Positions 34,144 through 56,213 are shown, numbered from the stretch's first letter. The stretch: DNA of 64,000 nt from an uncultured Acidobacteriota bacterium (GCA_964400605.1 CAYNUH010000003.1:50370-114369), one strand, 5' to 3'. A program made the numbers and translations. The notes: generated by a model from the letters alone, not told the origin.

Positions 34144-34549
34144 TGACCCCTCCGGCTTCCGGGTCGCCTTCTACGGGGCCATGTCGCTGCTCGCCCGGGA
34201 GGTGAGGCTGCAGCTCGAGGAGAATCTCTTCCCCGTGCGGTCCATGCACCTGTACGAGACCGGCGATCACGAGGGCAGCTTCACGGAGTGGTGCGGGGAG
34301 GCGATGGCGGTCGTCCGCCCCGACGAGGATCTCGTGGAGGACACGGACTTCGCGTTCGTCTGCGGCGAGGACGACGGGCGCACCCCCGCGGAGCTGGCCA
34401 CCGAGTCGGGGATCTGGATCGGCGACATCAGGGCCGATCCCCGCCGTCCGGGCGCCTTCTGGATCTGGGCCGTCTGCGACGCCGTCCGATGCGGCGCCGC
34501 CCTCAACGCCGCGCGCATGGCCGAGAGGCTCGCGGAGATACACGTATGA
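34133..34549 (+). CDS. Stand-alone degenerate aspartate-semialdehyde dehydrogenase N-terminal-domain-like protein (possible 3'-truncated asd remnant or pseudoenzyme)
   Basis: 'RVAFYGAMSLLAREVRLQLEENLFPV...DFAFVCGEDD...' resembles the Asd N-domain 'RVAVLGATGAVGQEMLRLLEERNFPV...DIAFFSAGG', but the GxxGxxG motif is degraded (GAMSLLA) and the Cys-containing catalytic domain is absent. Confidence 0.45.
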   Translation: MPADDPSGFRVAFYGAMSLLAREVRLQLEENLFPVRSMHLYETGDHEGSFTEWCGEAMAVVRPDEDLVEDTDFAFVCGEDDGRTPAELATESGIWIGDIRADPRRPGAFWIWAVCDAVRCGAALNAARMAERLAEIHV

Positions 34550-35415
34550 CGCCCCGGGGACTGCGGCGGTGGGGAAGGCGCACGGCCGCGCTGGCCGCCA
34601 TGGTCCTGCTCGCCGGCACGGCGCTCCCGCAAGAGCGCCAGTTCGTACGGCCCGAGGACGCCATCGTGGCCCTCTTCAGCCTCCAGACCGACCTCGAGGT
34701 CGAGCGGAAGATCCTGGCGCGCGAGGAGGCGCGGTACGAGGCGAACCAGAGGCAGCGGGCGGAGATCCGTGATCGGCTGGCCCGGATGCACGAGGAGATG
34801 GAGGCGCTGTTCCGGCTGGAGCGCGGCGAGACGGCGGGGGAGGCCGCCTCGGAGCGGGAGCGTGCCGCTTCCGACGCGGAGGTCCGCCAGTCCGCGGAGG
34901 CGAAAGAAGTCGAGGTGATGAGCCTGGAGCGCGGCGAGACGGCGGCCCGGGACGAAGGCCGCCGCCTGCGGGACGAGATCCGCCAGATCCGCGCGCGCAT
35001 CGCCCTCAAGGGAGTGCAGCTCGACTCGCTGCGGGCGAGCCTGCCCAAGGACCAGGACAGCGTCACGGGGCTGTGGGAGGTCTCACTGCTGCCCAGCGGC
35101 GACAAGGGGGTCTTCATGCTGTGGCAGTCGGGCACCCTGGTCTCCGGTCAATACGTGCTCGATGGGCCGTTCCGGGGGTCGCTGGAGGGGACTCTCATCA
35201 ACAGACAGATCGTGCTGCGCCGCATCGACGCGCGGCTGGGACGCTCGATGGAGTTCAGCGGGTACCTTTCGGCCGACGGCCAGCGGGTGCAGGGGACCTG
35301 GCTGAACTACGATCTCTCGTCGGGACGCTCGCCGAGCGGTTCGTGGACGGCGCGTAAGCGGTCCACCGCCCCGTCCGAAGGGGCGGCGCCCTCGGGCGGA
35401 GAGCCGGGGTCCTAG
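34546..35415 (+). CDS. Secreted coiled-coil hypothetical protein
   Basis: ATGA overlap with the upstream gene. Signal peptide 'MTPRGLRRWGRRTAALAAMVLLAGTALPQ', a long Arg/Glu-rich coiled coil, then a beta-rich C-terminus. Confidence 0.55.
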   Translation: MTPRGLRRWGRRTAALAAMVLLAGTALPQERQFVRPEDAIVALFSLQTDLEVERKILAREEARYEANQRQRAEIRDRLARMHEEMEALFRLERGETAGEAASERERAASDAEVRQSAEAKEVEVMSLERGETAARDEGRRLRDEIRQIRARIALKGVQLDSLRASLPKDQDSVTGLWEVSLLPSGDKGVFMLWQSGTLVSGQYVLDGPFRGSLEGTLINRQIVLRRIDARLGRSMEFSGYLSADGQRVQGTWLNYDLSSGRSPSGSWTARKRSTAPSEGAAPSGGEPGS

Positions 35416-37451: not shown

Positions 37452-39887
<2,436 letters not shown>

Positions 39888-40053
39888 CCCGCCTCCCGCG
39901 CCGACCCGCAGCCGCCCCGACTCGGCCCCGCTCCGGGTCAGGGCTCACCGCCCTGCGCAGCTCTCCCGTGCGCGCGCGTCGCGGGTCCAAGGTTTGATCT
40001 ACAATGCGGCGCGCTTGCCGCGATCCGCAAGCGAACGGGCCGCGCGCCCTCCC

Positions 40054-42780
40054 ATGACGGAGCCGGAGAATAGCCTCTTGAAGCGCAGCAAGTTGCGGGT
40101 GACGACCGCCGCCGCGGCGGTCGTCCTGACTGCCGCGGCCGCATGGGGCGCGACTGCCGCCGATCCGAACGCCCCCGCGCCTGCCGCAGCGCACGTCCCG
40201 TCCGGCGCGGGGGATCCCATCGGGACCGCCCGGGCCGACCCCAACGCACCTCCCGCGGCCGATCCGAACGGGACACCCCCGGCCGATCCCGGCGCCGCCC
40301 CCCCCGCGGCCGATCCGAACGGGACACCCCCGGCCGATCCCGGCGCCGCCCCCCCGGCTGCCGATCCGAACGCCCTGCCCGGCGAGGCGGCGGGTGAGGC
40401 GTCGGCGCCGCGGCCGGTGCCGGCCGAGCCGGAAGAGCCATCGACGATCGGCGGCGCGCGCATCACTCGCATCCTCGTGGAAGGCAACCAGCGCCTCACG
40501 CCGGATGCCGTCATGCACCTCATGACCTCCAAGCCGGGCGCTCCCTATGACGAGAGTCTGCTCCGCAGGGACTTCAAACGGATCTGGGACCGGGGGCTCC
40601 TGTCCGATCTCTCCATAGAGGCCCGGGACGAGAAGGGCGGCAAGGCGATCATCGTTCACGTGCAGGAGAAGCCGGTCGTCAACAACGTCTCCTACGACGA
40701 GAGCAAGATCGTCGGCGAGTCGCAGATCGAAGATACGCTCAAGGAGCGCAAGGCCGCGGTGGAGATCGGCGAGCCCGTCAACTACGACGCCGTGAAGAAG
40801 GCGGAGGAGGCGATCAAAGGGCTTCTGGGGCAGAAGGGGTACCTCGACGCGGAGGTGACCGCGGAGCTGAAGCCGGCGGAGACGCCCGCGTCCCTGGACG
40901 TCCACTTCAAGATCAAGGAAGGGCCGCGCACCCGGATCCGGCGGATCGAATTCACCGGGAACACGGTTTTCTCGGACCGGCGCCTCAAGAAGACCATGAG
41001 GCTCGTCCGCGAGAAGGGGTGGTTCACCCGCGTGAGCGGCAAGGACATCTACCACCCCATCAAGTTCGACCAGGACGTCCGTGAGGTGGAGACGCTCTAC
41101 CTGAACTCCGGCTACATCGACGTCGATATCCAACCACCCGATGTGAAGGTGGTAGAGGAGAGGGCGTCGGAGAAACCCGGCAAGTCGCGCAAGTGGGTCC
41201 ACATCACCCAGCCGGTCTCCGAGGGCCGCCGGTACAAAGTCGGCAAGATCGACGTCACCGGCAGCACGGTCTTCACCGCCGATGAGATCCGCAAGAGGAT
41301 CCCCCTGCGCGAAGGCCAGGTCCTCAACAACTCGATGCTGCAGGCCGGGCTGGACGCGGTGGAGGCGAACTACAGCCAGAAGGGGTACTTCTACATCTCC
41401 ACCAACAGGGTCATCGACCGCAAGCCCGACGCCGTGGCGGACATCACCGTCCGCGTGAGCGAGGACAAACCCTATCGGATCGACCGCATCGAATTCGCCG
41501 GAAACACGGTGACCCACGACTCTGTGCTGCGGCGGGAGATGCAGGTGAACGAGGAGGACCTCCTCGACATTCAGCGGATCCGGCTCGGGCTGAGGCGGAT
41601 CAACCAGCTCGGCTTCTTCGAGGTGCAGAAGGAGCCCGTCATCAAGCCCATCGAGGGGACGGACAAGGTCTCGGTGAGCATCGAGGGGATCGAGCAGCGC
41701 CGCAGCGAGCTGCAGGTGGGCGGCGGCTACTCCGGCCTGGACGGCGGCTTCTTCACCTCCTCTTATCAGACGCGGAACTTCCTGGGCCGCGGCGACCTGG
41801 TGACCTTCAACGCGCAGACGGGGCGGATCTCGACGCGCTACATCATCTCGTTCACCGAACCGTACTTCCTGGGCAAGCCCATCATCTTCGGCTTCAGCCT
41901 CTTCCGGCGGAGCACCGACTACTTCAACTTCCGCACCAGCGGTTCCGGCGGCAGCCTCACCCTGGGCCGACGGTTCCGCGCCTTCCACTCGGTGAGCGCC
42001 GCCTATCTGTTCGAGGACACCGACTTCAACCCCACCGAGGGCATCAGCCAGAACTCGAGAACCAGCAGCCTGCGGCCCGCATACCAGTTCGACACGCGCA
42101 ACAACTTCTTCCGCCCCTCCCGCGGCCTGCTCTTCGTGGCTTCCGCCGAGTACGCCGGAGGCCTGCTGGGCGGCGACAACTACTTCATCAAGCCGATCGT
42201 GGAGGCGACGCGGTACATGAAGGCGTGGAGGCGCACCTTGTGGGCGCTGCACGGGGAGGTGGGCTACGTCGCCGCCTTCGCCGAGGATCGGCATCTGCCT
42301 TCGGACAAGGACGGCGGACTGCCCCTGTTCGAAAGGTTCTTCCTCGGGGGAGAGCGGTCGCTGCGCATCTTCGAGACGCGCACGGTGGCGCCGGACGGGT
42401 TCATCAGCAACTTCTTCCGGCGCCGGATCCTGTTCAGCGCGGGCGACTGCCCGGCCGCCCCCGAGGGGCGCCGGCACTTCCTGCAGGACAGGTGCAACGG
42501 CTTCCGCGTCGGCGGCGACAAGTCGGTCCTGCTCAATGCCGAATACGTGATTCCCTCGCGGGGCCCCGTGGACCTGGCGCTGTTCCTGGACGCCGGCAAC
42601 GTGTACACGGAGGAGGAGAGGATCGACGCTTCCGAACTTCGGAAGGACGCGGGCGTGGAGCTGCGGTTTTACCTGCCCGTCTTCGGGGCGCCGCTGCGGC
42701 TCATCTACGGCTTCAACCTCGACCCGCAGCGCGGGGAGGGCAAGAGAAACTTCGTCTTCTCGATCGGGACGACCTTCTGA
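40054..42780 (+). CDS. bamA: Outer membrane protein assembly factor BamA, with an N-terminal Pro-rich tandem-repeat extension
   Basis: Signal peptide, five POTRA-like units, a 16-strand barrel region, and a C-terminus '...FVFSIGTTF'. The internal ATG 'MTEPENSLLKRSKLRVTTAAAAVVL' is preferred as the start. Confidence 0.9.
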   Translation: MTEPENSLLKRSKLRVTTAAAAVVLTAAAAWGATAADPNAPAPAAAHVPSGAGDPIGTARADPNAPPAADPNGTPPADPGAAPPAADPNGTPPADPGAAPPAADPNALPGEAAGEASAPRPVPAEPEEPSTIGGARITRILVEGNQRLTPDAVMHLMTSKPGAPYDESLLRRDFKRIWDRGLLSDLSIEARDEKGGKAIIVHVQEKPVVNNVSYDESKIVGESQIEDTLKERKAAVEIGEPVNYDAVKKAEEAIKGLLGQKGYLDAEVTAELKPAETPASLDVHFKIKEGPRTRIRRIEFTGNTVFSDRRLKKTMRLVREKGWFTRVSGKDIYHPIKFDQDVREVETLYLNSGYIDVDIQPPDVKVVEERASEKPGKSRKWVHITQPVSEGRRYKVGKIDVTGSTVFTADEIRKRIPLREGQVLNNSMLQAGLDAVEANYSQKGYFYISTNRVIDRKPDAVADITVRVSEDKPYRIDRIEFAGNTVTHDSVLRREMQVNEEDLLDIQRIRLGLRRINQLGFFEVQKEPVIKPIEGTDKVSVSIEGIEQRRSELQVGGGYSGLDGGFFTSSYQTRNFLGRGDLVTFNAQTGRISTRYIISFTEPYFLGKPIIFGFSLFRRSTDYFNFRTSGSGGSLTLGRRFRAFHSVSAAYLFEDTDFNPTEGISQNSRTSSLRPAYQFDTRNNFFRPSRGLLFVASAEYAGGLLGGDNYFIKPIVEATRYMKAWRRTLWALHGEVGYVAAFAEDRHLPSDKDGGLPLFERFFLGGERSLRIFETRTVAPDGFISNFFRRRILFSAGDCPAAPEGRRHFLQDRCNGFRVGGDKSVLLNAEYVIPSRGPVDLALFLDAGNVYTEEERIDASELRKDAGVELRFYLPVFGAPLRLIYGFNLDPQRGEGKRNFVFSIGTTF
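40257..40360 (+). repeat. Near-perfect 51-bp direct tandem repeat (x2) encoding 'AADPNGTPPADPGAAPP' in the BamA N-terminus
   Basis: 'gccgatccgaacgggacacccccggccgatcccggcgccgccccccc' occurs twice in tandem, flanked by degenerate copies (ADPNAPPA..., ADPNALPGEA). Confidence 0.8.
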
Positions 42781-48844: not shown

Positions 48845-49324
48845 GGCCTGCCCCAGCGATCCGCCGAGCGCCTATCCTCATGTGTCCGCGCCGCCGCCGA
48901 TGCCGTTCGCGAGTAGGCGGCTCCCTGCCTGCGGCGCTCATCGTGAAAAGAGAAAGCCCCGGGAGTCGGACCATAACGCTGTCCCGCGGCTACGGCGGCC
49001 GCGCTCCCGGGGCCGGTGGCGCTGGAAGTCGCTCTAGCGGCGGCTCTCAGATCGCCTGAACCAGATTGGAGGTCCGTCCGCTAGGACGACGCCACCTCAC
49101 TCACCGTACGTTTATCGTCCACCAATGGACCACCTCCTTCCCCGGCGCGGAAGACATCGGGTCGAGTCCAGACTCGCCCGGGCCCGTGGGGCCGGACCGC
49201 CGATGTCGGGCCCCCGGGGCGCCGCGGCCCTCGCCGCGACTCGGGAAGATGTGTGGTCTCCCCGTGCGGGGTCATAGATACCACCAACTCCGGTTCGACG
49301 CCACAGGAGTTTTCACGCGGGCCC

Positions 49325-49960
49325 TCAGAGGATCTCGCTGATCACGGGCTCGCGGCTGCGAAAGGCGTAGAGCTGGGCCGGTCGGTGGGGGCCGCGGCGC
49401 TTGACGGACAGCGCCCGGAGCAGCCCCAGCGACAGCACTTTCTTGCGGAAGTTCCTCCGATCGAGACTCCGGCCGAGGATGACCTCGTACACCTCCTGAA
49501 GCTCGGCCAGAGTGAAGGACTCGGGTAGCAGGCTCCACGCGATGTTGGTGTACCCGAGCTTCGACCGCAGCCGCTGCAGCGCCGTGGCCGCCAAATCGTT
49601 GTGGTCGTAGGCGAGGCGCGGGAGGTCCTTCACCGGGTACCACCCGATGCCCGCGTACTTGGTCCCGGGGCGCAGGAAGCGGCCCCTGTGCGGGACGAGG
49701 GCGAAGTAGGCCACCGACACGACTCTTTGGATCGGGTTCCGGTCCGGCTCGCCGAACGTGTAGAGCTGCTCCAGGAAGATGTCGCTGACGCCCGTTTTCT
49801 CGAGGAGTTCCCGCCGGGCGGCCTCCTCCACCGATTCGCCGAGCCCCACGAGGCCCCCCGGGAAGGCCCAGTGTCCCGCGTGAGGGCCGGTCTTGATCTT
49901 CACCAGAAGGGCGAGGAGGCGCCCCGCGTCGATGGTGAAGACCACGACGTCCACGGCCAC
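49325..49960 (-). CDS. nrtR: NrtR-like Nudix-family transcriptional regulator of NAD metabolism
   Basis: Nudix box 'GHWAFPGGLVGLGESVEEAARRELLEKTG' and a C-terminal winged helix 'FTLAELQEVYEVILGRSLDRRNFRKKV' typical of NrtR. GTG start with AGGAG 9 nt upstream. Lies immediately downstream of nadA. Confidence 0.72.
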   Translation of the reverse strand: MAVDVVVFTIDAGRLLALLVKIKTGPHAGHWAFPGGLVGLGESVEEAARRELLEKTGVSDIFLEQLYTFGEPDRNPIQRVVSVAYFALVPHRGRFLRPGTKYAGIGWYPVKDLPRLAYDHNDLAATALQRLRSKLGYTNIAWSLLPESFTLAELQEVYEVILGRSLDRRNFRKKVLSLGLLRALSVKRRGPHRPAQLYAFRSREPVISEIL

Positions 49961-49991
49961 CCACGGATGCTCCTGGGAGCGCGCGCGCGCG

Positions 49992-50108
49992 CCGCGCCGG
50001 GAATCGGAAGGAAGGGAGGCGAGGGAGGAGCGGGAGGTCCGGCGGCGAGAGGGAGAAGGGCGTGAGGCAGGCCGCCGGGCGGAAAGAGTGGCTGGTGAGG
50101 CGGAGGAG
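49992..50108 (+). repeat. About 120-nt purine-rich (GGA/GAGG-repeat) low-complexity tract in the nadA-nrtR intergenic spacer
   Basis: 'ggaatcggaaggaagggaggcgagggaggagcgggagg...gagagggagaagggcgtgagg...gaggcggaggaggagg' on the plus strand; it reads as a C/U-rich tract on the nadA-nrtR mRNA strand. Confidence 0.7.
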
Positions 50109-50121
50109 GAGGTCGGCTCGC

Positions 50122-51146
50122 TCAGGCGCCCAGCTCGAACATCCGCCGCAGCGCCCGCTCGGCGCCGAGGCGGACCGACTCGTCGAGGGTAATCTCGTGC
50201 TTCATCGTCTCGAGAGAGGCGAGCGTCCCGTCCAGCGTGATCATCTTCATGTATGCGCACAGCTTGCAGGCCTTGTAGAACTTCTTGTCCGGGATCTCGA
50301 GCAGGAGCCGGTCGGAAAGGCCGCACTCGGTGACGACGAGGAACTCCGAGGCCTCCGAGCGGCGCGCATAGCCGATCATGCCGCTGGTGCTCAGCACCGC
50401 GTCGGCCAGAGAAAGCACGTCGGTCCGGCACTCGGGGTGGGCCAGCACGCGGATGCCGGGGATGTGCTCGCGCACCCTGCGGATCTGCTCGGGCGTGATC
50501 TGGTGGTGGACGTAGCAGTTCCCGTCCCACGAGATGATGGTCTTGCCGGTGTTGCCCTGGACGTAGTTGGCGAGGTTGCGGTCGGGGACGAACAGGATGT
50601 GGCGGCTCGGGAGGGCCTCCACGATCTTCACCGCGTTTGAGGACGTGCAGCACACGTCGGACTCGGCCTTCACCTCGGCGGTGGTGTTCACGTACGTCAC
50701 GACGGCCAGGTCGGGGTAGATCGCCTTCAGTTCGGCCTTCCTCTCCGCGAGCGCCTCGGCGGTGACGCTGTCGGCCAGGGTGCATCCGGCGTTGCGGTCG
50801 GGCAGGAGCACCGTGCGGGAAGGATTCAGGATCTTGGCGGTCTCGGCCATGAAGGCGACGCCGCACAGGACGATGACGTCGCAGTCGAACGTGGATCCCT
50901 TCTGCGCCAGCTCCAGGGAATCGCCGACGAAGTCGGCCACCTCGAAGATCTCGGGGCGCTGGTAGTTGTGGGCGAGAAGGACAGCGCGCCGCTCCTCCTT
51001 CAGGGCACGGATACGGGCGATGGTCTCGGCGTACTTCTCGCACGCGACGACGCCGTAGCGGCACTCGTCCCCCAGCGGCTCGAAGTGCCTCGAGAGCTGT
51101 CCGGCGTCGGAAAGCGCGGCGGCGGTCGCTGAGCTGGGCGTGGCGT
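50122..51146 (-). CDS. nadA: Quinolinate synthase A; full-length homology lacks a canonical start codon
   Basis: The ORF-track segment 50122..50940 starts at an internal GTG ('MADFVGDSLELA') but holds all three Fe-S Cys (CGVAFMAE, NCYVHHQ, ECGLS). Upstream in frame is '...TPSSATAAALSDAGQLSRHFEPLGDECRYGVVACEKYAETIARIRALKEERRAVLLAHNYQRPEIFE', with no ATG/GTG/TTG for 88 codons back to a TGA. GGGAGGG followed 6 nt later by ACG lies at about 51146. Confidence 0.8.
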
Positions 51147-51179
51147 GCCCTCCCGGAACACTTTGCGTAATTCGTACAC

Positions 51180-51208
51180 ATACTAGGCACGCGGCGCCGT
51201 GCTGTCAA
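51180..51208 (-). promoter_or_regulatory. Near-consensus sigma70 promoter TTGACA-N17-TAGTAT upstream of nadA, with a 5-bp inverted repeat (GCACG-n6-CGTGC) in the spacer
   Basis: Read on the minus strand. An AT-rich discriminator/leader follows ('GTGTACGAATTACGCAAAGTGTT'). Confidence 0.5.
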
Positions 51209-51258
51209 GTCTCCTCCGGGTGCGGTAGTGGGCTCCGTTACGGCGCGGTCGGGGAGGG

Positions 51259-54200
51259 CTACTTCACGGTGACGGCGATGGCGCGGGCGAGGGCGTCGCT
51301 TCCGTTGGGGCAGATGGGACTGACGCCCGGCAGATCGAGCACGAGGTCCCGTGGGCACAGCTCGGCGGTCGCCTTCCATGTTCCCGAAACCGCACCGTCG
51401 GGGAGCTTCAGCCTGAACCTTGATTCGGTTTTCTGGCCGGCGAACGCCTCCATCGTGAAGGAGACCCCTTTGCCTGCGCGGCCACCGCGGGGATTCACGA
51501 GCGTCGCGAAGCCGTCGATCCTCTCGCCTCTCCCGGTCCGGTTGAAGACGGTGAGCCCGATCTTCACGGAAGATCCGGGCTTCACGACCCCGGCGGTGTC
51601 GCCACGCGTGCGCATGGACATCGTGAGCTCCACGCCGTCGCAGGCGTCGCCGCTCATGTTCCCGTCGGCGTCCACCTGGGACGGGTTGGACACCGCGGGG
51701 CAGTTGTCGCAGGCGTCGCCGAGGCCGTCCCCGTCCTCGTCGGCCTGGGTGGGGTTGTAGACCGCGGGGCAGGAGTCGCAGGCGTCGCCCACGGCGTCGC
51801 CGTCGGAGTCGGTCTGGCCGGGGTCGGCATCGGCCGGGCAGTTGTCGTCGCAGCCCGCGTTGGCGCCGCCGGCGCACGGAAGGATCGTGTTGGGGTCCAT
51901 GTCGGCGTCCTCGGGGACGCCGTCGCCGTCGGCGTCGGGGTCGCACAGATCCCCCGCGCCGTCGGCGTCGATGTCCTTCTGTCCGGGGTTGGCCAGAAGC
52001 GGGCAGTCGTCGTCGCAGCGCCGGATGTCGCCTCCCGTGCAGGGCGCGTCGCCCGCGATCCCGCTTCCGTCGCCGTCTTCGTTGACGCCGTCCGCGTCGT
52101 CATCCTCGTCGCACACGTCTCCCTCACCGTCGAGATCGAAATTCACCTGGTTCCCCAGCAGGATCTCGTTCGGGTCCGCGGCTCCGCTGCCGTCCACGTC
52201 GCACCGGAGCGGGTCCGCGGCGCAGTCGCCGTTGCGGACTTCGGCGCAGTTGTCGCAGAGGTCGCCCACGCCGTCGCCGTCGCCGTCCGCCTGGTCGTCG
52301 TTCGAATCGCCGGGGCAGTTGTCGTCGCACCCCACGGTGGCGCCGCCGGCGCAGGTCTGCGGGACGTTCGGGTCGTTCTCCGCGATGCAATCGCCGTCGT
52401 CGCTCGCGTCGCACGCGTCGCCGCCCAGGTTGGCCGGATCGGTCCGGCAGGCGTTCGGGTCGGAGGGGAAGTCCGCGTCGCTGTCGGCGTCCGGCTGCAG
52501 CGAGTCGGGGAATAGGGCGCAGGTGTCGCAGGCGTCGCCGACGAAGTCGCCCTCCACGTCCTCCTGCGCCGGGTTGTAATCGAGAGGGCAGTTGTCGTCG
52601 CAGCCCGACACGGCGCCGCCCGTGCAGGGGGTGAGTGCCTCCACACCATCGCCGTTTCCGTCCTGGGGCACGCCGTCCCCGTCGGCGTCCAGGTCGCAGG
52701 CGTTGCCTTGCGAATCGGCGTCGAGGTTGTCCTGCCCCTGATTGAAGACGAGCCGGCAGTTGTCGTCGCACATCGTGAAGTCGCCGTTGGGATCGGGGAC
52801 GCAGGCCGAATCGCCGGCCGTGCCGCTGCCGTCCCCGTCGTCGAGGACGCCGTCGTTGTCGGCGTCGGTGTCGCAGGCGTCGCCCTCACCGTCGAAATCG
52901 GAATTGACCTGGTTTCCCAGTGCGCGCTCGGCCATGGTGGTGGTCCCGTCCCCGTTCACGTCGCAGCCGGTCGGCTCCGCCGGGAGGCAGAACCCGTTCG
53001 GCACCAAACGGCAGTTGTCGCACCGGTCGCCGATCCCATCGGAGTCCGCGTCTTCCTGAAGCGGGTTGCGGCGCACGACGCAATTGTCATCGCACCCGGA
53101 CGTGCCTCCGCCGGTGCAGGGGAGGAGCGTGTTGGGATCGCCGTCCGCGTCGTCCGGCACGCCGTCGCCGTCGCGGTCGCCGTCGCAGGCGTCGCCTTCG
53201 CGGTCGCGGTCCAGGTCGCGCTGGCTCCCCAGCGCGCGCTCCGCCAAGGTGGTCGTTCCGTCCCCGTTCACGTCGCAGCCGGTCGGCTCCTCCAGGAGGC
53301 AGAACCCGTTCGGCACGGACAGGCAGTTGTCGCACGCGTCGCCGAAGGAGTCGGCGTCCACGTCGGCCTGATCGCCGGCGGCGATCTCGTTGGGGTCGGC
53401 CGTCCCGTTGCGGTCGCCGTCGCAAAAGCGCGGGTTGATCGAGCAGTCGCCGTTGCGCCGCCGCGGGCAGTTGTCGCACAGGTCTCCCACGCCGTCGCGG
53501 TCGCGGTCCCTCTGCGTGGCGTTCGTCGTCTGCTGGCAGTTGTCGTCGCACCCCTCGAACTCCCCCGACCGGCAGGGATCGGACGTGTTTGGGTCGCCGT
53601 CCGGGTCCTCCAGGATTCCGTCGTTGTCGCGGTCCGCGTCGCAGACGTCCCCCAAGGTGTCGCGGTCCTGGTCGCGCTGATCGCCGAGGTCGATCTCCTC
53701 CGTGGACGTCTGCCCGCTCAGGTCGGTGTCGCAGAGCGGGAGGGTGGAAGGGCTGTTGGGATCGCAGGGCCCGTTCCTGAGGCCGGGGCAGTCGTCGCAG
53801 ACGTCGCCGACGGCGTCGCCGTCGCCGTCGATCTGGTTGGGGTCGAAGGCCAGCGGGCAGTTGTCGTCGCACCCCACCGTCACTCCCGACGGGCAAGGGG
53901 CGGTCGTGTTGGGGTCGCCGTCGAAGTCCGCCGGCACGCCGTCGTCATCCAGGTCGTTCGGGTCCGTGCCGGCGGGCAGCTCGAACGCCCCCACGTCCGG
54001 GGCCGCTCCGCCCGTCCGGTCACCGTCGATGGGACGCGGGTTCCCCGCGAAGTCCTCCGCCGGCAGGAGGACGAGTCTGCGGTAGAGGTTGTCCTCCCGG
54101 GTGTCCGGGTCGCCGTCCGGGCCGGGATCCACGAGGAGCACGCCGTCGGAGCCGCCGTCCAGCAGCGGGGCAGCCGGGGCGATGGCGAAGTTGGGGTCCA

Positions 54201-55335
54201 GAGCGGGATCCACGGAGCGGTTGAGGTCCAACCCGAGGGGGCTCTTCGGCCGCCCCGCCTCGTCGGGAGTGTTGCCGTGAAAATCGTTGCCGGCGACGAC
54301 GGGCTTGGCGTTCAGCACGCGCAGGCCGCCGCCGCTTCCGGCCGCGACGTTGTCCTTCACGACGTTGTTCACGATGGAGGGGCTCGTGCTCGTCTCGCTT
54401 CCCGTGTCGCCGACCACGTTGACGCCGCCGCCGCTTCCCCGCAGCGCCCGCAAACCCAGGGCCCGGTTGGCCGCGATGACGTTGTGGGTGATGAAGGGGC
54501 TGGAGCTGTAGACGTCGATGCCGCCGCCGCCGGCGTCGGCACGGTTGCCCACGATCACGTTGCTGCTGATGGCGGGGAAGGCGGCCCCGGTTTCGACGGC
54601 GATGCCGCCGCCGTAGCCGAAGTAGGCGTCCGACGACGCGAGCGCCTGGTTCCCCCGGATGGTGTTGCGGGTGATCATCGGTGATCCGCCGAAGACGGCG
54701 ATGCCGCCCCCCGATCCGCGGACGGCCCTGTTGCCGTCGATGATGTTCCCCTTCACGGTGGCCCCGCCGCCGAGGCTGAGCCCGCCCCCGCGGGAGGGCT
54801 GTGAGGAGGTCCCTCGGGCCGTGTTGCCCGTGATCCTGTTGTTGGTGATCTCGACGTCGCCTCCCAGGGAGAGGACACCGCCCGCGGCGAAGCCGACGCC
54901 GCCCGTGATGGTGAACCCATCGATCACGGTTGTGAGGAAGGCGGCCGGAATCCGGACCACGGGACCGACCCCCCCGCCGTCGATGGTCGTGACGTCTCGC
55001 CCCGATCCCTGCAGGCGGAAGCCGGTGGGCAGCGTGATGGACTCCTGGTACGTGCCCGGCCTCACCTCGATGACGTCGATCATCTCCGGGAGGAGGTTGG
55101 GATCCACGTTGGGGTCGGCGCTCAGGATCCGGATGTTGCGGGTGACGGCGCCCGTGATGGCGCCCGAGATGGTCCGGTAAGGATGGTTGGCGTCGCCGTT
55201 CTCGATGCCGGTGAGGTTGGCCGCGTCAACGAAGAAGGTGGCCGCCGGCAGAGGCCGGGCCGTCACGGCGAGCGCGCACACCCCGAGCGCGACAGCGACG
55301 AGAACGCACGCGTTCAACCTGCTCTTGCGGATCAT
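51259..55335 (-). CDS. Giant secreted protein: signal peptide + right-handed parallel beta-helix (PbH1 repeats) + at least 12 thrombospondin type-3-like Ca-binding repeats + C-terminal beta-sandwich-like domain
   Basis: ATG with GGAG RBS and signal '[26 protein letters not shown]'. PbH1-like 'ITGNTARG...[19 protein letters not shown]...NTIRGN'. Repeated 'DxDxDGxxDxxDxDPN...C..GC/CDDNC' units. The track ORF is over-extended to 55869. Confidence 0.85.
51600..53950 (-). repeat. Intragenic DNA repeat region encoding TSP3-like calcium-binding repeats
   Basis: Recurring near-identical blocks, e.g. 'ggggcagttgtcgtcgcacccc' and 'gtcgcaggcgtcgccgacg', at about 51830, 52310, 52590, 53090 and 53860. 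Confidence 0.7.
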
Positions 55336-55460
55336 CCATCTCCGTCCGCGGCGGGCGCGCACCTTCTTGGACACCTCAGTGGAGGCTTGGTTTCCGGGTG
55401 AGAGCGATGGGAGGATCGCGGCGACGGCGCGGGAATCTAGCACAGCGCCCGCGCACCCGC

Positions 55461-56042
55461 TCAGCTCTCGACGCGCCGCGCGCCCTCCACGACGCCGTAG
55501 AGCCCCTCCTCGAGGAACAGAAGCGGGCGGAGCTGCCGGTAGCGCTCCTCCGGGTTCCCACGCAGGAGCCCCTCGTCCACGCTCACGCTGAGGATCCTCC
55601 CGAAGAGCGCCACCTCCTCGGCGTTGAATCGCTTCGAGGAATCGAGGACGCACTCCACGTGGGCTCGGCATTCCTGCACGAACGGCGGCGCGACCTTGAG
55701 CGCCGGAGTGAGGGTCCAGGCCGGCTCGTCCCCGTCCATCTCCAAGAGGAGCGTCTCGGCCGCCCCCCACACGCGCGGGCAGAGATCCTCCCCGGGGATG
55801 TTGACTACGAACTCCCGGGTCTCGAGGATGTTGATGGCCGTGCGGTGGGAGATCCGGCAGGCGAGGCACAGCGTCGGGGGCTCCGATGCGACCATCGAGA
55901 TCCAGCTCTTGGCGGCGACGTGGACCTCGCCCTGGATGCTGCGTGAGGAGACGAGGACGACCTGCCCCAGCAGCGGCGAAGGGTGCCAGGAGGCCTTGTC
56001 GGCGGGGACTTCGACCTTCTTTCCGGAGCTTCGGCGTATCAT
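55461..56042 (-). CDS. Flavin reductase-like (FMN-binding split-barrel) domain protein
   Basis: '[17 protein letters not shown]...[42 protein letters not shown]' resembles Flavin_Reduct. Internal ATG chosen. Confidence 0.72.
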
Positions 56043-56213
56043 GCTGGCTGCAAGCCTTTCGGGAGGATGCGCCCCGGCGGCGCAGGGAAGTGCGGGCCGC
56101 GAGGCCGGCCGGGAATGAGACATGATTCTATCAGATGCCGCCGCGCACCGCCTGGGCCGCCGGGGACGGATCCAGCCAAGGAGGTCCCGGGAAGGGCCCA
56201 CGCGGTGTGGCCC

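Follow-up and report, generated by a model that had tools for sequence, protein, structure and literature searches.

A probable ACG initiation codon for nadA in an uncultured Acidobacteriota bacterium and related lineages

Genes and signals at the nadA-nrtR locus

In this study, we analyzed a stretch of 64,000 nucleotides from an uncultured Acidobacteriota bacterium (GCA_964400605.1 CAYNUH010000003.1:50370-114369; the whole stretch is called the window, and WIN in lineage comparisons), with emphasis on the quinolinate synthase gene nadA and the regulator gene nrtR that follows it on the minus strand. The nadA gene has no ATG, GTG or TTG ahead of the codons for its conserved N-terminus. Our analyses suggested that its translation probably starts at a near-cognate ACG codon, which is found at the same position in other, diverged lineages and stands behind a very strong Shine-Dalgarno (SD) sequence. 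The features of the locus are collected in Table 1.

Table 1. Features of the nadA-nrtR locus, in window coordinates and in the order of transcription.
Feature	Position	Strand	Remarks
-35 hexamer TTGACA	51203..51208	(-)	Invariant in 15/15 aligned orthologous leaders
-10 hexamer TAGTAT	51180..51185	(-)	17-nucleotide (nt) spacer; TAGTAT or CAGAAT in orthologues
Predicted NrtR-type operator, 21-base-pair (bp) palindrome TATGTGTACGAATTACGCAAA, GT-N7-AC core	51162..51182	(-)	Overlaps the -10 box and the expected transcription start
SD sequence GGGAGGG	51148..51154	(-)	6 nt before ACG; predicted anti-SD duplex -10.8 kcal/mol
ACG, proposed nadA initiation codon	51139..51141	(-)	56 codons before the A of AHNYQ
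nadA coding sequence as proposed	50122..51141	(-)	339 codons plus stop TGA 50124-50122
AHNYQ codons (residues 57-61)	50959..50973	(-)	H, N, Y and Q invariant in the alignment; aligned in all solved NadA chains
GTG, first canonical in-frame start, codon 68	50938..50940	(-)	Start of the 272-amino-acid (aa) public call P0001 (JGI); downstream of HNYQ
nadA-nrtR spacer, 146 nt, C/T-rich	49976..50121	(-)	From nadA stop to Q-E-H-P-W codons; open in the nrtR frame, no canonical start
nrtR as publicly called	49325..49960	(-)	GTG 49960, 211 aa

The open frame of nadA runs from 51204 to the stop codon at 50124-50122, and the in-frame TGA that bounds it upstream (51207-51205) lies inside the -35 hexamer. 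The first ATG, GTG or TTG in this frame is the GTG at 50940, which has codon index 88 in the stop-to-stop open reading frame (ORF) and lies 67 codons from the ACG at 51141-51139. An original prediction, made from the window sequence alone, had stated that no such codon occurs for 88 codons back to a TGA, and this was confirmed. It had also placed an ACG 6 nt after GGGAGGG, at about 51146; the codon and the spacing hold, but the ACG at 51146-51144 is out of frame and the in-frame one lies 5 nt further on. We then screened all stop-to-stop ORFs of the window with coding-like base composition (n = 33), and in four of them more than 80 codons precede the first canonical start. The start-less portion overlaps the preceding gene in the ORF at 39646-42780 and an opposite-strand gene in the ORF at 34267-35082, and the ORF at 51259-56127 encodes the giant protein upstream of nadA, whose likely true start (signal peptide) is further downstream. 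Only nadA, among the 33, has a long start-less 5' part that is otherwise unexplained.

Protein comparisons extended into this start-less part. The Pfam family NadA (PF02445) matched the long form at 3.2e-117 over profile positions 2-295 of 295; the nearest database homologues, 335-340 aa in length, covered 96-100% of the 339-residue ACG-initiated form; and the PDB chains 4HHE, 5KTM, 1WZU and 4P3X matched NadA with E-values from 1e-78 to 2e-66, beginning at residue 35 or 41 and ending at residue 337. An alignment of 26 sequences showed that conservation sets in about 16 residues past the ACG, with the pattern L..RF.PLGDP.RYG.EAC, and that a Tyr, a Cys and the HNYQ motif are invariant in the N-terminal part, so that the conserved N-terminus proposed to lie upstream of the GTG at 50940 is indeed present. 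The HNYQ motif is included in the product only if translation starts upstream of 50973; a start at the GTG would drop 67 residues, among which are the invariant Tyr, Cys and HNYQ as well as the ~27 residues with which the crystallised fold begins. Structural work on NadA of T. maritima and P. horikoshii reportedly assigns a catalytic role to the His and Tyr of this motif. The best explanation is that nadA is a functional quinolinate synthase gene that would be expressed in its full-length form, and the GTG at 50940, in front of which no SD sequence was seen, is probably not used as its start. Compared with the crystallised archaeal and Thermotoga enzymes, the NadA family here carries an N-terminal extension of ~40 residues (window 51022-51141), in which the invariant Tyr and Cys are found (..PLGDP.RYG.EAC..).

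Upstream of nadA, the TTGACA-N17-TAGTAT promoter that had been predicted was found at 51208-51180 as the only promoter-like match in 49800-51400, where shuffled sequences gave an expectation of 0.1. The original prediction missed the 21-bp NrtR-type palindrome over the -10 box, which is the truly conserved regulatory element: its consensus, TATGYGTA-N5-TACRCAAA, directly overlaps the -10 hexamer, a site of this type occurs once in the 64-kb window (0.05 expected), and 40 of 173 fetched loci have the core pattern immediately ahead of nadA. Published NrtR operators are 21-bp palindromes with a GT-N7-AC core (Rodionov et al., 2008; PMC2330246), and the site at 51182-51162 agrees with this description and has its cognate NrtR gene directly downstream. 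The assignment of that gene to the NrtR family stands, as the copy in the 99.8%-identical contig L161 carries Pfam NUDIX (PF00293) and WHD_NrtR (PF21906/PF19368) domains and the protein aligns to the AraR/NrtR structures 5BS6 and 3GZ5. Because the palindrome on the -10 box is conserved and nrtR lies downstream, control of the nadA-nrtR operon is most likely transcriptional and exerted by its own NrtR. The inverted repeat GCACG-N6-CGTGC (51202-51187), also pointed out in the original prediction, is present in the promoter spacer but absent from all orthologous promoters, and is probably incidental rather than a regulatory site.

The codon at the start position and its Shine-Dalgarno sequence

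For comparison, 160 loci of relatives were fetched, followed by the contigs behind the closest proteins (loci are designated by L-numbers). The closest loci are syntenic with the window, comprising a giant TSP_3/beta-helix protein, nadA and nrtR and often TonB-like and beta-lactamase-family genes, and they grouped together as a single clade in a neighbour-joining tree, which had no bootstrap support. In the wider set, mostly Binatia-like metagenome-assembled genomes (MAGs), an ATG, GTG or TTG stands 50-58 codons ahead of AHNYQ in nearly all loci. At the start position, ACG was found in five lineages (WIN/L161, L163, L164/165/166, L167/168 and L001/L170, the last reading ACG ACG), ATG in L171, L172, L173 and L175, GTG in L081 and L169, and TTG in L162. 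Counted back from the A of AHNYQ, the distance to the ACG is exactly 56 codons in each of the five ACG lineages; L081 has its GTG, L162 its TTG and L172 its ATG at this same position, and the starts of L169 (GTG), L171 (ATG) and L173 (ATG) are at most 2 codons away from it.

The five ACG lineages are well diverged, with NadA identities of 71-81% (76-78% for the others relative to the window), and ACG is the only near-cognate codon common to all five. In WIN, L161, L163 and L167/168, no in-frame ATG, GTG or TTG occurs from the -10 box to 3-7 codons before AHNYQ or later. Sister sequences can be matched codon by codon, for instance ATG AGC ACC GCC TGC GAA GGA in L173 with ACG TCC ACC TGC GAA GGA in L163, and ATG CTC ACC ACC in L171 with ACG CTC ACC ACC in L170/L001 and ACG CTC ACC ATC in L164. 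The nadA start position has switched between ATG and ACG several times in the clade. In L174 (L174:1150-1210), an ACG at SD-optimal spacing (AAAGGAGA-6-ACG) is accompanied by an ATG three codons on, ~16 nt from the SD sequence, and this locus may be an intermediate between the ATG and ACG start types.

The SD sequences differ along with the start codons. Five of six ACG sequences contain a GGAGG core, which lies 5-8 nt upstream of the codon in WIN, L163, L164, L167 and L170. Predicted SD-anti-SD energies range from -8.7 to -11.3 kcal/mol in ACG lineages, from -7.7 to -7.9 kcal/mol in GTG/TTG lineages and from -0.4 to -6.6 kcal/mol in ATG lineages, and thus separate the lineages completely by start codon (Mann-Whitney p = 0.006, for 12-13 lineages and without phylogenetic correction). 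The SD sequence being stronger where the start is weaker (ACG > GTG/TTG > ATG), the comparison suggests that start codon and SD strength compensate each other in the clade; the strengthening in ACG lineages is as expected if ACG is a very weak start that needs a strong SD sequence. Across prokaryotes, the weaker starts GTG and TTG likewise go with stronger SD sequences (Belinky, Rogozin and Koonin, 2017; PMC5622118). A window-wide count of SD strings 4-9 nt ahead of codons, in long ORFs rich in GC at third codon positions, showed that GGAGG-like strings are common inside the coding sequence of this GC-rich genome.

Between L001 and L170, both of which carry the ACG, the ratio of non-synonymous to synonymous substitution rates (dN/dS) over the full ORF is 0.08 at dS = 0.27, and we therefore conclude that nadA is under purifying selection in spite of lacking a canonical start. 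Their leaders are scrambled between the operator and the SD sequence and perfectly identical from the SD sequence onward, as expected if the functional initiation region begins there. The whole ORF, its N-terminal part included, is intact in all ACG lineages. The earlier suggestion of a functional locus with a genuine non-canonical ACG start is supported by this dN/dS value and by the conservation of the codon in five lineages.

These comparisons make it likely that translation of nadA starts at the near-cognate ACG at 51141-51139. In the scheme that we propose, a near-consensus sigma-70 promoter would drive transcription of nadA-nrtR, and the 21-bp NrtR-type operator, covering the -10 box and the start site, would allow the operon to be repressed by its own NrtR. 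The leader, of ~32 nt from the transcription start to the ACG and poorly structured, would carry the very strong SD sequence GGGAGGG at a distance of 6 nt from the codon; this would position the 30S subunit such that the initiator transfer RNA (tRNA) pairs with ACG despite the mismatch at the second position, by analogy with reporters in E. coli. The resulting full-length NadA would have 339 residues and be produced at a low rate, and in the clade the start position would change among ATG, GTG, TTG and ACG, with the weaker codon accompanied by the stronger SD sequence. The E. coli reporters initiate at ACG with ~0.1-1% of the AUG level and yield a product with N-terminal Met (Hecht et al., bioRxiv 10.1101/063800). 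A scan of the window for an unusual initiator tRNA found no tRNA genes.

Several points weigh against initiation at the ACG. First, the level measured in E. coli, only ~0.1-1% of that of AUG, is low. Second, some of the ACG lineages have other codons at their disposal: L001/L170 have a GTG 9 codons past the ACG and ahead of the conserved block, which could take its place; in L164, an in-frame ATG lies 4 nt past the -10 box and could give a leaderless messenger RNA (mRNA); and L174 has the ATG 3 codons after its ACG. Third, the transcription start was placed by promoter consensus, and the SD correlation depends on the limited, phylogenetically uncorrected set of lineages given above.

Other explanations, and the 5' ends of nadA and nrtR

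Translation might begin elsewhere in the same region, at the ATT or ACG in the operator (51171-51166), at a CTG in the PLG motif or at a leaderless start, which we regard as improbable. Such near-cognate codons do lie in frame in the window, and the L164 ATG might sit at the 5' end of the transcript; however, no candidate is shared throughout the ACG lineages (L163, L164 and L167 have CTC for the PLG leucine), and none has an SD sequence. The ATG within the operator was rejected as a nadA start, being out of frame in WIN, L163 and L001 and overlapping the -10 box.

It is very unlikely that nadA is a pseudogene, or that only a truncated enzyme of 272 aa is made from the GTG at 50940. This GTG is the first canonical start and was chosen by the JGI gene caller, but the truncation would remove the 67 residues described above, HNYQ among them, from a site that no SD sequence precedes, whereas the orthologues start at the ACG-equivalent position. 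The intact ORF of all ACG lineages, the dN/dS of 0.08 and the conservation of promoter, operator and SD sequence ahead of the ACG also argue against decay or truncation, the latter of which the original prediction had listed among its alternatives.

Similarly small is the probability that C-to-U editing of the mRNA turns the encoded ACG into AUG, although a genomic ACG facing an ATG in relatives is the pattern of edited organellar starts (PMC9845219). The graded strengthening of the SD sequence in ACG lineages would be unexpected if the codon were restored to AUG. Moreover, we know of no site-specific C-to-U mRNA editing system in bacteria.

A sequencing or assembly error, the real codon being ATG, can hardly be upheld either. 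ACG is a single transition from ATG and the contigs are metagenome assemblies, which could favor such an error. Nevertheless, L161 is an independent JGI contig that is 99.8% identical to the window, differs from it at 10 of 5653 bases and has the same ACG, and four other diverged lineages, from separate projects (JGI, ENA, NCBI MAGs and Logan), have it at the equivalent position. In addition, the L164-166 sequence is identical in three JGI samples, and L167/168 is identical in NCBI and ENA assemblies. As the ACG recurs in an independent contig and in diverged lineages of different projects, a recurrent one-base error, which the original prediction had left as an option, is not credible.

The least probable alternative, to which we give next to no weight, is that the region upstream of 50940 is not coding but forms a structured leader in the RNA, for example the NAD+-I riboswitch ('nadA motif'), a class reported upstream of nadA in Acidobacteria according to the original prediction. 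A cmscan with all Rfam families and permissive filters over both strands of 49000-52500 found no NAD+ riboswitch at E<=10 and gave two weak chance matches only (snoZ6 and M23, both inside nrtR). The ~32-nt leader is short, 195 of 200 shuffles of 51174-51100 fold more stably than the actual sequence (z = +1.8), the peptide encoded by the region is conserved in many homologues, and the conserved leader motif is the DNA palindrome on the -10 box.

Public annotations of nadA in this clade differ systematically from the start proposed here, ACG, in both directions. Some calls are extended into the promoter or operator (349-378 aa, among them calls of 350, 354 and 378 aa, beginning MCKVYAK, MFYTN or MCIVYTN), and others are shortened at the 5' end (272, 317 or 330 aa); wrong 5' ends concern L162, L164-168 and P0004, P0005, P0014, P0015, P0001, P0016 and P0010. 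We attribute them to gene callers that ignore ACG or prefer an in-frame ATG in the NrtR box, since the operator ATG is in frame in some lineages, which would account for the over-long MCKVYAK and MFYTN forms.

Outside the ACG lineages, a few further nadA genes lack a canonical start. In the more distant L048 (L048:2950-3010; a MAG labelled Planctomycetota), no in-frame ATG, GTG or TTG lies between a TAG in the operator and AHNYQ, and the sole candidate start is a CTG 5 nt after AAAGGAG, which looks like a second, independent non-canonical nadA start. Two other genes have no canonical start at the usual position: that of L123 (L123:2130-2334) may use an ACG, with no visible SD sequence, and that of L036 (L036:2960-3165) may use an ATG inside the operator.

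The 5' end of nrtR is also in question. The five codons just upstream of the GTG at 49960 encode Q-E-H-P-W, which is kept in 13/13 clade lineages with synonymous third-position changes; at least 90% of the more distant NrtR proteins with a start further upstream retain its H and P, and the motif aligns to a solved NrtR-family structure. The true N-terminus of NrtR therefore probably lies further upstream than this GTG, as judged from the comparison of sequences. No in-frame canonical start occurs in the 146 nt of the window between the nadA stop and Q-E-H-P-W, where the sole near-cognate codon is a CTG overlapping the nadA stop (CTGA). In L173, the Val after the Trp is encoded by GTC, so that there is no canonical nrtR start at all, and the public call is shortened to 172 aa. 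The spacer has no in-frame stop in ten lineages, all ten having the same phase (2 mod 3) at lengths of 38-146 nt, an argument that is weakened by the TCC-rich nature of the spacer expansion in the window; GC content by codon position does not separate coding from non-coding in the spacer, owing to its Ser/Pro/Arg/Ala-rich nature. The start of nrtR could be reached by termination-reinitiation at CTGA, the GTG at 49960 could yield a short isoform, or a second non-canonical start could be in use. A -1 frameshift fusing NadA to NrtR was set aside, as the end of nadA has no slippery site.

The same issue with the nrtR start concerns L163, L167, L170, L001, L174 and L175. The spacer of 146 nt in the window compares with 38-85 nt in orthologues and contains many CCTCC/TCC repeats resembling the anti-SD sequence; its translation in the nrtR frame would yield a basic tail rich in Ser, Arg and Pro. 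On the other side of nadA, directly upstream and in the same orientation, lies the gene of a giant secreted protein (1300-1500 aa; window 51259-55869) with thrombospondin type-3 and beta-helix repeats, and the order from this gene to nadA is conserved across the clade (also in L164, L168, L169, L170 and L171).

Significance and comparison with known systems

If the ACG is a true and maintained start, the list of bacterial start codons in code tables and gene callers is incomplete. The shortened NadA call could pass for a pseudogene, and the organism could be wrongly scored as a NAD auxotroph. The clade would also offer a natural experiment, in which a series of ATG, GTG, TTG and ACG with graded SD sequences is found in one orthologous gene, and its nadA would be under a predicted NrtR operator instead of an NAD+ riboswitch. 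A further and more doubtful reading is that the clade uses ACG, and perhaps CTG, regularly as a selectable start codon and not in one odd gene only, with the discrimination by IF3 or the initiator tRNA relaxed or differently tuned. We give it some weight because in most lineages nrtR likewise has a non-canonical or ambiguous start, with no canonical one at all in L173, and because the nadA start has switched between ATG and ACG several times. In that case, weak starts combined with strong SD sequences might act as a translational set-point or a stress-responsive control on the NrtR-regulated nadA-nrtR operon.

Near-cognate initiation in bacteria is already known; what we have not found described is a housekeeping biosynthetic gene on which an ACG start has been maintained in evolution. 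The infC gene of E. coli, which encodes IF3, starts with AUU, and the annotated near-cognate bacterial starts comprise CUG, AUU, AUC and AUA (translation table 11). To our knowledge, ACG is not among the starts of that table. Annotated starts in well-annotated bacterial genomes comprise ATG, GTG, TTG, CTG, ATT, ATC and ATA, and not ACG (bioRxiv 10.1101/063800), and our search of the literature for a natural bacterial ACG start found only eukaryotic, viral, plant-organellar (edited) and engineered cases, which is not proof of absence.

The proposed start of nadA shares with infC-type starts a conserved codon other than AUG, GUG or UUG behind a proper SD sequence, which would be read by the initiator tRNA with low efficiency and would be expected to depend on discrimination by IF3. 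Unlike these starts, the nadA ACG has its mismatch at the second codon position, and unlike infC, nadA plays no part in initiation and shows no sign of autoregulation through the codon. With the E. coli ACG reporter (Hecht et al., bioRxiv 10.1101/063800), it has in common an ACG behind a strong ribosome-binding site, the reporter protein being found mostly with N-terminal Met; the reporter, however, was engineered, whereas nadA is a natural gene of an essential pathway in which the codon persists across species. Plant-organelle starts likewise show a genomic ACG where relatives have ATG, but their editing needs dedicated organellar factors, and the SD compensation seen at nadA argues against restoration to AUG.

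As regards regulation, the locus resembles the NrtR-controlled NAD operons (Rodionov et al., 2008; PMC2330246), in which nrtR adjoins an NAD gene and a 21-bp GT-N7-AC palindrome lies on the promoter; that study does not mention Acidobacteria or the box TATGYGTA-N5-TACRCAAA, and the operator here is predicted from sequence. The NAD+-I riboswitch (nadA motif), by contrast, is absent here, with no covariance-model match and a leader too short and unstructured to form it. Finally, the association of start codons with SD strength runs in the same direction as that reported for prokaryotes at large (PMC5622118), a weaker start codon going with a stronger SD sequence; that analysis covered AUG, GUG and UUG only, whereas here the series reaches ACG within one orthologous gene.

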